Positions 22,373 to 23,215 of a stretch of DNA of 56,439 nucleotides are shown here, in pieces. The translations under genes were made by a program, and so were the position numbers. The stretch is from positions 1 to 56,439 of the forward strand of contig JABLTJ010000022.1 of the NCBI GenBank assembly GCA_013166775.1, written 5' to 3'. Every line of letters starts with the position of its first letter. Within the stretch, counting starts at the first letter, position 1. Below the pieces are notes generated by a model, which saw only the letters and a list, made by a program, of their open reading frames with translations, searched no databases and was not told the DNA's origin. Source of the stretch: Promethearchaeati archaeon (GTDB lineage: Archaea > Asgardarchaeota > Heimdallarchaeia > Heimdallarchaeales > Heimdallarchaeaceae).

Positions 22373-23215
22373 ATGACTCAATACAGAAAAGAAATCCTGA
22401 TTTCTCCATATGTTTTAGCAAAGATATTGTCAGTAGATTCTATAGAGCCAACTAAAGAGTCTGCGGGTGTTCTTCTAGGTTATTTGGATGAGGACGGAGA
22501 AACGTTAATTGTAACAGATTTTGATACAGGAAGTCAAAAACAAACATCTACTTTTGTTACCCTAGATGATGAAGCTCTTGTTCAGATTGTTGAAGATTTA
22601 CAGAAAAGAGAAAGAAATGAAACAATTGTTGGTTGGGCTCACACTCATCCATCTTTTGGTTGTTTTCTCTCAGGAACAGATAAAAATACTCAACGAATAT
22701 ATCAGAATCTGTTTTCACATGCTGTTGCACTTGTTGTAGACCCCTCTAAATACTATAACACTTCACAGCAAAAAGATTTGGAAATCCAATTTTTCAGATT
22801 AATCGATGATCTTGATTACAAAGCTGTTCCTTACGGGATTTACTTTGATGATATTACTCAACATTTATCCAATTTAGTAGAGGTTGATATTAAATGGGAT
22901 ATTCCACAACTTACAAAGGAAGAAGTCAGAAAACTTCATCAGAAATTGGAAACCATTGTCTCTCCAAAACTTCTTGAGAATGATAAGATGTTGCTTCATG
23001 GTTTTGTTGATATACTAAGTGAGTCAAAAGAAGAGCTGGTGGATGTTGGAGAAGGTAAGGAAATATTGGAATCTATTGATAAGAAATTAAGCATTATTGG
23101 TGATAATGTTAATCAAATATATAACGAAGAAACATTCAATCTTTATGCTGTTCTCAATATTATTGCTGTTGTTATAATAGCAATCTCTTGGTTTTTGATA
23201 GCTTTTTTCATTTGA
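22373..23215 (+). CDS. JAMM/MPN+ metalloprotease (Rpn11/AMSH-like) with C-terminal membrane anchor
   Basis: ESAGVLLG and VGWAHTHPSFGCFLSGTD (intact E...HxH...S..D), AVALVVDP; tail LYAVLNIIAVVIIAISWFLIAFFI. Confidence 0.9.
   Translation: MTQYRKEILISPYVLAKILSVDSIEPTKESAGVLLGYLDEDGETLIVTDFDTGSQKQTSTFVTLDDEALVQIVEDLQKRERNETIVGWAHTHPSFGCFLSGTDKNTQRIYQNLFSHAVALVVDPSKYYNTSQQKDLEIQFFRLIDDLDYKAVPYGIYFDDITQHLSNLVEVDIKWDIPQLTKEEVRKLHQKLETIVSPKLLENDKMLLHGFVDILSESKEELVDVGEGKEILESIDKKLSIIGDNVNQIYNEETFNLYAVLNIIAVVIIAISWFLIAFFI

Follow-up and report, generated by a model that had tools for sequence, protein, structure and literature searches.

The ubiquitin and ESCRT genes of Asgard archaea serve to reconstruct the origin of ubiquitin-dependent membrane sorting. 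One gene in the stretch of Heimdallarchaeaceae DNA that we analyzed (56,439 nucleotides, hereafter the window; GC content 31-35%) raises the question of whether ubiquitin could be removed directly at an archaeal membrane, as an earlier note on this sequence had described its product as a tail-anchored, deubiquitinase-like JAMM protease. We asked whether the gene encodes an intact protease, how its product would be held at the membrane, and what it would cut there.

The gene occupies positions 22373..23215 on the forward strand, begins with an ATG codon and, from the open reading frame list and its translation, is complete, encoding 280 amino acids plus a stop codon, with no long open reading frame competing or overlapping across these coordinates. 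We found 50 full-length homologs of ~280 amino acids; those down to 50% identity are nearly all 277-294 amino acids long, the few shorter ones being fragment-like, and close homologs are annotated as belonging to Heimdallarchaeota or Heimdallarchaeaceae MAGs. The protein has three parts: a JAMM/MPN+ domain, a helical stalk of ~100 amino acids and a hydrophobic C-terminal helix that is free of charged residues.

The JAMM/MPN+ catalytic domain (residues 1-156; 22373..22840, forward strand) was assigned by Pfam, by sequence matches to the PDB, and by AF2 modeling combined with Foldseek. Residues 6-112 match the Pfam JAB family (PF01398) with an E-value of 6.7e-15 (55.4 bits against a cut-off of 22.5), and the protein also matches Prok-JAB (E-value 4.2e-6). 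In the AF2 model, which was built on a 51-sequence alignment (pLDDT 84.8), residues 1-156 adopt the MPN fold, and the best Foldseek match is yeast Rpn11 (5u4p_B; TM 0.89, rmsd 2.2). The zinc-binding motif WAHTHPSFGCFLSGTD (residues 88-103; 22634..22681, forward strand), read from the sequence, yields H90-x-H92-x7-S100-x2-D103, and the catalytic general-base glutamate upstream, E29 (codon at 22457..22459, forward strand), completes the signature E...HxHx7Sx2D. The motif is thus exactly as the earlier note had claimed, and its five catalytic residues (E29, H90, H92, S100 and D103) do not vary across the 51 tail-anchored JAMMs that we aligned, distant lineages included. This invariance makes it hardly credible that the protein is a membrane-bound MPN scaffold without catalytic activity, a role with precedent in the eukaryotic MPN- scaffolds Rpn8, CSN6, eIF3f/h and EMC8/9.

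To place the catalytic domain among known JAMM systems, we ranked its sequence matches in the PDB, which gave 91 bits for CsRpn11 of Caldiarchaeum subterraneum, 66 bits for Rpn11, 52-58 bits for CSN5 and 27-42 bits for Sst2/AMSH. CsRpn11 (PDB 6FJU, 6FJV, 6FNN and 6FNO) is the best sequence match (6fjv, 1.2e-24, ~37% identity); its residues 9-144 align to residues 7-144 of the protein with one gap of 2 residues, and its structures superimpose on the AF2 model with TM 0.83-0.87 and rmsd 2.2-2.9. Described as a 'primordial soluble Rpn11', CsRpn11 has been experimentally proven to be a protease that acts on ubiquitin precursors and ubiquitin conjugates, and it has no Ins-2 (PMC6043591). The two proteins share the JAMM motif, a putative Ins-1-like segment and the absence of an insertion the size of Ins-2. 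The putative Ins-1 equivalent DTGSQKQTSTFVT (approximately residues 50-62; 22520..22558, forward strand) aligns without gaps to the CsRpn11 stretch DAVTGEQYGTPAYV, and six of its residues (T52, G53, Q55, Q57, T58 and V62) are invariant within the family. By analogy with CsRpn11, this segment is expected to clamp the C-terminal tail of ubiquitin (PMC6043591). Unlike the tail-anchored JAMM (TA-JAMM) of the window, CsRpn11 is soluble and is encoded within a Ub-E1-E2-RING operon; the TA-JAMM adds the helical stalk and a predicted C-terminal transmembrane helix, and its gene lies outside any ubiquitin operon. The statement in the earlier note that characterized JAMM proteases are soluble agrees with the full-text literature that we searched, the solubility of CsRpn11 included (PMC6043591).

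The eukaryotic relatives differ in other ways. Rpn11/PSMD14 and CSN5 share with the TA-JAMM the MPN+ fold, the motif and the presence of helices after the MPN domain, but they act alongside an MPN- partner within soluble PCI complexes and carry both an N-terminal helix and Ins-2. Likeness to AMSH, AMSH-LP and Sst2 is conceptual, in that these are JAMM deubiquitinases that remove ubiquitin at a membrane. AMSH is brought to the membrane by contacts with STAM and, via its MIT domain, with ESCRT-III rather than by a transmembrane helix, and its Ins-2 confers K63 specificity. The TA-JAMM has no MIT domain, because the protein begins directly with the MPN fold (from about residue 6; no other Pfam domain was matched), and no room for Ins-2, since it aligns with a gap of only 2 residues to CsRpn11, which itself lacks this insertion (PMC6043591). 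With neither feature and with low similarity, the TA-JAMM is not a member of the AMSH family; its catalytic domain is Rpn11-like.

Downstream of the catalytic domain, the helical stalk comprises residues 157-256 (22841..23140, forward strand; block-mean pLDDT 58-89), with AF2 helices at residues 160-168, 182-194 and 202-217 and from residue 229 onward, the last being a single long helix that runs to residue 279. In the aligned family W175 is nearly invariant and P178, L180 and I242 are invariant; the stalk is kept within the long-form subfamily defined below and is much shorter in the short form. The predicted tail-anchor transmembrane helix, called from hydropathy and conservation, spans residues 257-280 (LYAVLNIIAVVIIAISWFLIAFFI; 23141..23212, forward strand). 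Its best 19-residue Kyte-Doolittle window (residues 260-278) has a mean of 2.79 and is followed by only 2 residues, and the last 24 residues of the protein include no charged residue. The corresponding window scores 2.47-2.97 in 22 of 22 aligned homologs (down to 50% identity), with 0-3 residues following and with Y258, N262 and W273 invariant, whereas in distant relatives the hydrophobicity of the tail is kept but its sequence is not. Because hydrophobicity is conserved without sequence across Asgard archaea, the tail bears the signature of a lipid-facing helix.

No signal peptide was detected in the protein, and the second-best hydropathy window (1.15, from residue 8) falls on the first strand and first helix of the MPN fold. 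A single transmembrane helix close to the C-terminus (within ~30 residues), with no signal peptide at the N-terminus, is the layout of a tail-anchored protein, and with this predicted topology the catalytic domain would have to face the cytoplasm. We also considered whether the C-terminus is a PGF-CTERM/archaeosortase signal and rejected this reading because the protein lacks a signal peptide, a PGF motif and a basic tail. A different reading of the same helix is that it forms a buried protein-protein interface, like the bundle helices of Rpn11 and CSN5. These proteins do carry C-terminal helices past the MPN domain, and Foldseek aligns the model with full-length Rpn11 and CSN5, though poorly beyond the MPN core (rmsd 9-16). 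A charge-free stretch of 24 residues at the extreme C-terminus, with Kyte-Doolittle values of 2.5-3.0 and with only its hydrophobicity conserved across Asgard, makes a buried interface very improbable. The helical stalk, the hydrophobic helix at the extreme C-terminus and the missing signal peptide were thus correctly described in the earlier note, and its picture of a membrane-bound, cytoplasm-facing JAMM is well supported by the conserved helix. At the level of sequence, we regard the architecture of a cytoplasm-facing, tail-anchored Rpn11-type JAMM as secure, and the tail would be expected to insert into the membrane. A Get3/ArsA-family ATPase is encoded in the genome, but as an insertion route this homolog is weak evidence, because the search was unspecific and a control also matched in 14 of 14 reference genomes.

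We examined how widely this architecture occurs. A within-class scan recovered a full-length ortholog in 28 of 31 genomes from the family to which the window belongs and long-form relatives in four further families, and a profile search of 1.8 billion representatives for distant JAMMs returned many more that share the tail-anchored layout. A scan of species genomes placed tail-anchored forms in Heimdall-, Kari-, Baldr-, Jord-, Frey-, Hermod-, Odin- and Helarchaeota and in several 'Promethearchaeota'. In a phylum-wide sample of 300 genomes, hydropathy confirmed the tail in representatives of 15 of 30 Asgard families, so that the conservation of the tail, on which the earlier note had made its reading depend, extends well beyond the close homologs. 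TA-JAMMs fall into two size classes, a long form of ~280-300 amino acids with a stalk, to which this gene belongs, and a short form of ~215-245 amino acids. Relatives from Aigarchaeal/Nitrososphaerota genomes that we checked, Caldarchaeum among them, are soluble with basic, non-hydrophobic C-termini. A separate membrane JAMM layout was seen in Bathyarchaeia, Thermoplasmata and other archaea, in which the JAMM domain is N-terminal, a single transmembrane helix lies near residue 190, and the large domain at the C-terminus is probably outside the cell (L057, L058; P0112, P0116, P0136, P0168, P0172, P0178 and P0190).

A quick tree of the JAMM domain only, from a data set without AMSH, BRCC36 and MPN- families, recovered a long-form clade (SH-aLRT 96; tail-anchored rows 27/29) and a weaker short-form clade (SH-aLRT 83; tail-anchored rows 27/32). 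Both lie apart from the clade that unites Rpn11 and CSN5, with a backbone support of 86 that is not significant; on the relative closeness of TA-JAMMs and operon JABs to the eukaryotic Rpn11 and CSN5, pairwise scores oppose the tree.

At the level of families, the distribution of Rpn11-like JAMMs tracks that of ubiquitin. All 15 families with TA-JAMMs have ubiquitin (PF00240), the family tallies for Rpn11-like JAMMs and for ubiquitin almost coincide among the 300 genomes, and Rpn11-like JAMMs and ubiquitin are both missing from families f10, f11 (0/76 genomes), f16, f21 and f28. This pattern is suggestive only, because the families are few and related and the JAMM profile used for scoring also picks up soluble operon JABs. 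In other families, soluble JAMMs lie within ~2 kb of ubiquitin, and TA-JAMMs lie tens to hundreds of kilobases away.

We next consider the genes that surround TA-JAMMs. The neighbors of the gene in the window are a kinase, a CofE-like ligase and a pterin-binding enzyme; no ubiquitin, E1, E2 or ESCRT gene was found beside a TA-JAMM gene in the loci examined. The upstream neighbor in the window (21278..22327, forward strand; 349 amino acids as listed) is a kinase of the APH/choline-kinase fold, identified by adjacency, invariant residues and AF2/Foldseek, and its translation probably begins with the ATG at 21281, not with the TTG at 21278. It ends 46 nucleotides upstream of the JAMM gene on the same strand and is the only neighbor kept at long range, adjoining long-form TA-JAMMs in 13 loci and down to 29-31% identity. 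Its invariant residues (K74, E85, D205, N210 and D228) follow the K, E, D-x4-N, D kinase pattern, and its AF2 model (pLDDT 88.6) matches macrolide/aminoglycoside phosphotransferases, MTR kinase and choline kinase in Foldseek with probability 1.0. The N-lobe resembles that of protein kinases (SGRFGDVY, LAIKF), and the catalytic loop reads FGDYHQSN...IDP. A complex prediction for the kinase with JAMM residues 1-256 gave a score of 0.00, which is evidence neither for nor against a contact. Between the two genes lies a purine-rich BRE-like plus TATA-like element (AGGGGAAAAAATTTAAAG; 22330..22347, forward strand), recognized from its sequence and centered ~29 nucleotides before the JAMM ATG. It is present at the matching position in 9 Heimdallarchaeaceae loci, which is consistent with a promoter function, so that the JAMM gene may be transcribed on its own, nearly without a leader. 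A scan for bacterial promoters and terminators, a method unsuited to archaea, returned hits at chance level.

The short-form TA-JAMM has different partners. In Odin and Jord loci it is the third gene of a tight cassette (L044:7954-10648; L019:7880-10666; also L021), after genes for proteins of ~410 and ~258 amino acids without a Pfam family. We compared these partners with the kinase by profile-profile comparison, and no relationship was found (probability 0.1-0.2%). In Loki/Hermod-type loci (L037:8078-8770, reverse strand; L020, L031 and L043), a convergent Roadblock/LC7 gene lies 83-91 nucleotides downstream of the short form, an adjacency that may be coincidental because such genes are abundant in Asgard genomes. 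Farther along the window, 7 kb downstream of the JAMM gene, a 691-amino-acid protein (30360-32435, reverse strand) carries a C-terminal RING finger (zf-RING_2, 9e-6) and could be an orphan E3, and genes for a TFIIB (36627-37583, forward strand) and a SepF-like protein (37717-38085, forward strand; PF04472, 1.1e-6) represent ordinary archaeal housekeeping functions.

These neighborhoods bear on the identity of the substrate. The substrates of prokaryotic JAMMs also include SAMP, MoaD, ThiS and CysO-type proteins as well as other peptides, and Iyer, Burroughs and Aravind reportedly described such diverse substrates in 2006. A membrane-tethered JAMM peptidase that cuts another beta-grasp protein (SAMP/MoaD/ThiS-like) or an unrelated peptide near the membrane, and that is perhaps coupled to the kinase, would fit a gene that lies outside every ubiquitin operon and is accompanied by a kinase in the long form or by two proteins without a family in the short form. 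We nevertheless consider a non-ubiquitin substrate rather improbable, as the closest characterized relative, CsRpn11, is a true ubiquitin protease and the tail-anchored form never occurred in a family without ubiquitin among the 300 genomes sampled.

To view the TA-JAMM in the context of the whole ubiquitin system, we surveyed the remainder of the genome, which is 89% complete. It contains two JAB genes only, with no second JAB that resembles an MPN- partner, and no match to the OTU, USP (PF00443) or UCH (PF01088) families was found at this level of completeness. The other JAB (L005:7744-8448) lies on contig C102 in an operon of the order E2 - JAB - RING - RING - Ubl - E1. It is a soluble protein of 235 amino acids with an N-terminal extension and no transmembrane helix; it belongs to the same Pfam family and also has CsRpn11 as its best PDB match, but it scores 53 and 46 bits against CsRpn11 and Rpn11, compared with 91 and 66 bits for the tail-anchored enzyme. 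A second cluster, on contig C27, has the order Ub - E1 - UEV/Vps23/Vps28 fusion - EAP30 and contains no protease gene. The ubiquitin of this cluster (L006:7405-7653, reverse strand) ends in ...RTKGGF, one residue past the Gly-Gly, and therefore needs C-terminal trimming. A Cas12f/TnpB-like gene (L006:1469-3034) lies near this cluster.

A closed genome from another genus of the family (G006) has the same kinase-JAMM pair. Its ubiquitin (L110:6699-6932) ends in GGL and lies in an ESCRT cluster, among whose scanned open reading frames there is no JAB. We asked whether the tail-anchored enzyme is the sole JAB in closed genomes of the family and found that it is not: a UFM1-like operon in both G006 and G007 carries another JAB, which is divergent. 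In G006 this cassette (L109:5831-10529) encodes a ThiF-type E1, a 352-amino-acid JAB, an 87-amino-acid protein ending in ..RGVVG and a UFC1-like E2, together with an EAP30-like winged-helix protein and a Band7/SPFH protein.

From these data we propose that the gene encodes a zinc-dependent JAMM isopeptidase of the Rpn11/CsRpn11 type that is tail-anchored and cuts ubiquitin, or a close ubiquitin-like protein, from membrane-proximal conjugates, a model that we hold to be probable with moderate confidence. In this model, the single C-terminal transmembrane helix would insert the enzyme into the cytoplasmic membrane in a tail-anchor topology, placing the catalytic domain in the cytoplasm atop the stalk. 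E29 would activate a zinc-bound water, H90, H92 and D103 would hold the zinc, S100 would stabilize the intermediate, and the Ins-1-like segment would clamp the Gly-Gly tail of a ubiquitin-type protein. Given this family chemistry and the Gly-Gly clamp, the enzyme would cut ubiquitin or a close ubiquitin-like protein off its conjugates near the membrane, acting as a second, location-specialized protease beside the soluble JAB of the ubiquitin operon. Substrate specificity is not readable from sequence; ubiquitin would be the most economical choice, since CsRpn11 processes ubiquitin, the tail-anchored form co-occurs with ubiquitin across families, and no OTU, USP or UCH match was found in this genome.

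The enzyme might also remove the single extra residue from the precursor of the ESCRT-linked ubiquitin (..GGF). A connection to this ubiquitin is possible only by elimination, because of its GGF ending and the lack of a protease gene in its cluster; any link of the TA-JAMM to ESCRT or to the neighboring kinase is an inference. In its fuller form, this narrower version of our preferred model holds that the enzyme acts like AMSH or Doa4, stripping ubiquitin from membrane cargo and maturing Ub-GGF for the Asgard ubiquitin-ESCRT pathway. The protease-free Ub-E1-UEV/Vps23/Vps28-EAP30 cluster with a ubiquitin that needs trimming, the assignment of the genome's other JAB to a different ubiquitin-like operon, and the fact that ESCRT works at membranes, where the tail-anchored enzyme would be fixed, all point in this direction. 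Against these observations stand the missing MIT domain and Ins-2, the absence of adjacent ESCRT genes, the distance from AMSH (27-42 bits, against 91 for CsRpn11) and the fact that the argument is one of elimination in a genome that is 89% complete. We regard AMSH/Doa4-like action as unlikely, and the functional likeness to AMSH that the earlier note had drawn is unsupported by the bit scores, the domain content and the neighboring genes, none of which belongs to ESCRT or ubiquitin systems. Somewhat more speculative still is the proposal that the TA-JAMM and the APH-type kinase together are the missing protease of the Asgard ubiquitin-ESCRT pathway, maturing Ub-GG+1 and recycling ubiquitin from membrane cargo at the ESCRT site. 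Were it true, the pair would represent a prokaryotic forerunner of the AMSH/Doa4 step in which direct membrane anchoring takes the place of MIT-ESCRT-III recruitment.

Returning to the tail-anchored Rpn11-type isopeptidase, a full-text search, with most subscription papers outside its reach, found no description of a membrane-anchored JAMM, and in the published surveys within reach JAB/MPN genes are named solely as parts of operons (PMC9192718, PMC10936438). CsRpn11, the one enzyme of this kind from archaea to have been characterized, is reported to be soluble (PMC6043591). The protein differs from every studied relative by its conserved, predicted membrane-spanning C-terminal helix, and its tail would place it, as a non-SNARE protein, among the few tail-anchored proteins listed for prokaryotes. 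It also provides a concrete enzyme for experimental testing. Some of the archaeal ubiquitin machinery therefore probably operates at the membrane. The retention of a predicted membrane-fixed Rpn11-type protease in roughly half the Asgard families that we sampled, in every case together with ubiquitin but outside the ubiquitin operon, suggests that the removal of ubiquitin was already divided between compartments before eukaryotes arose.
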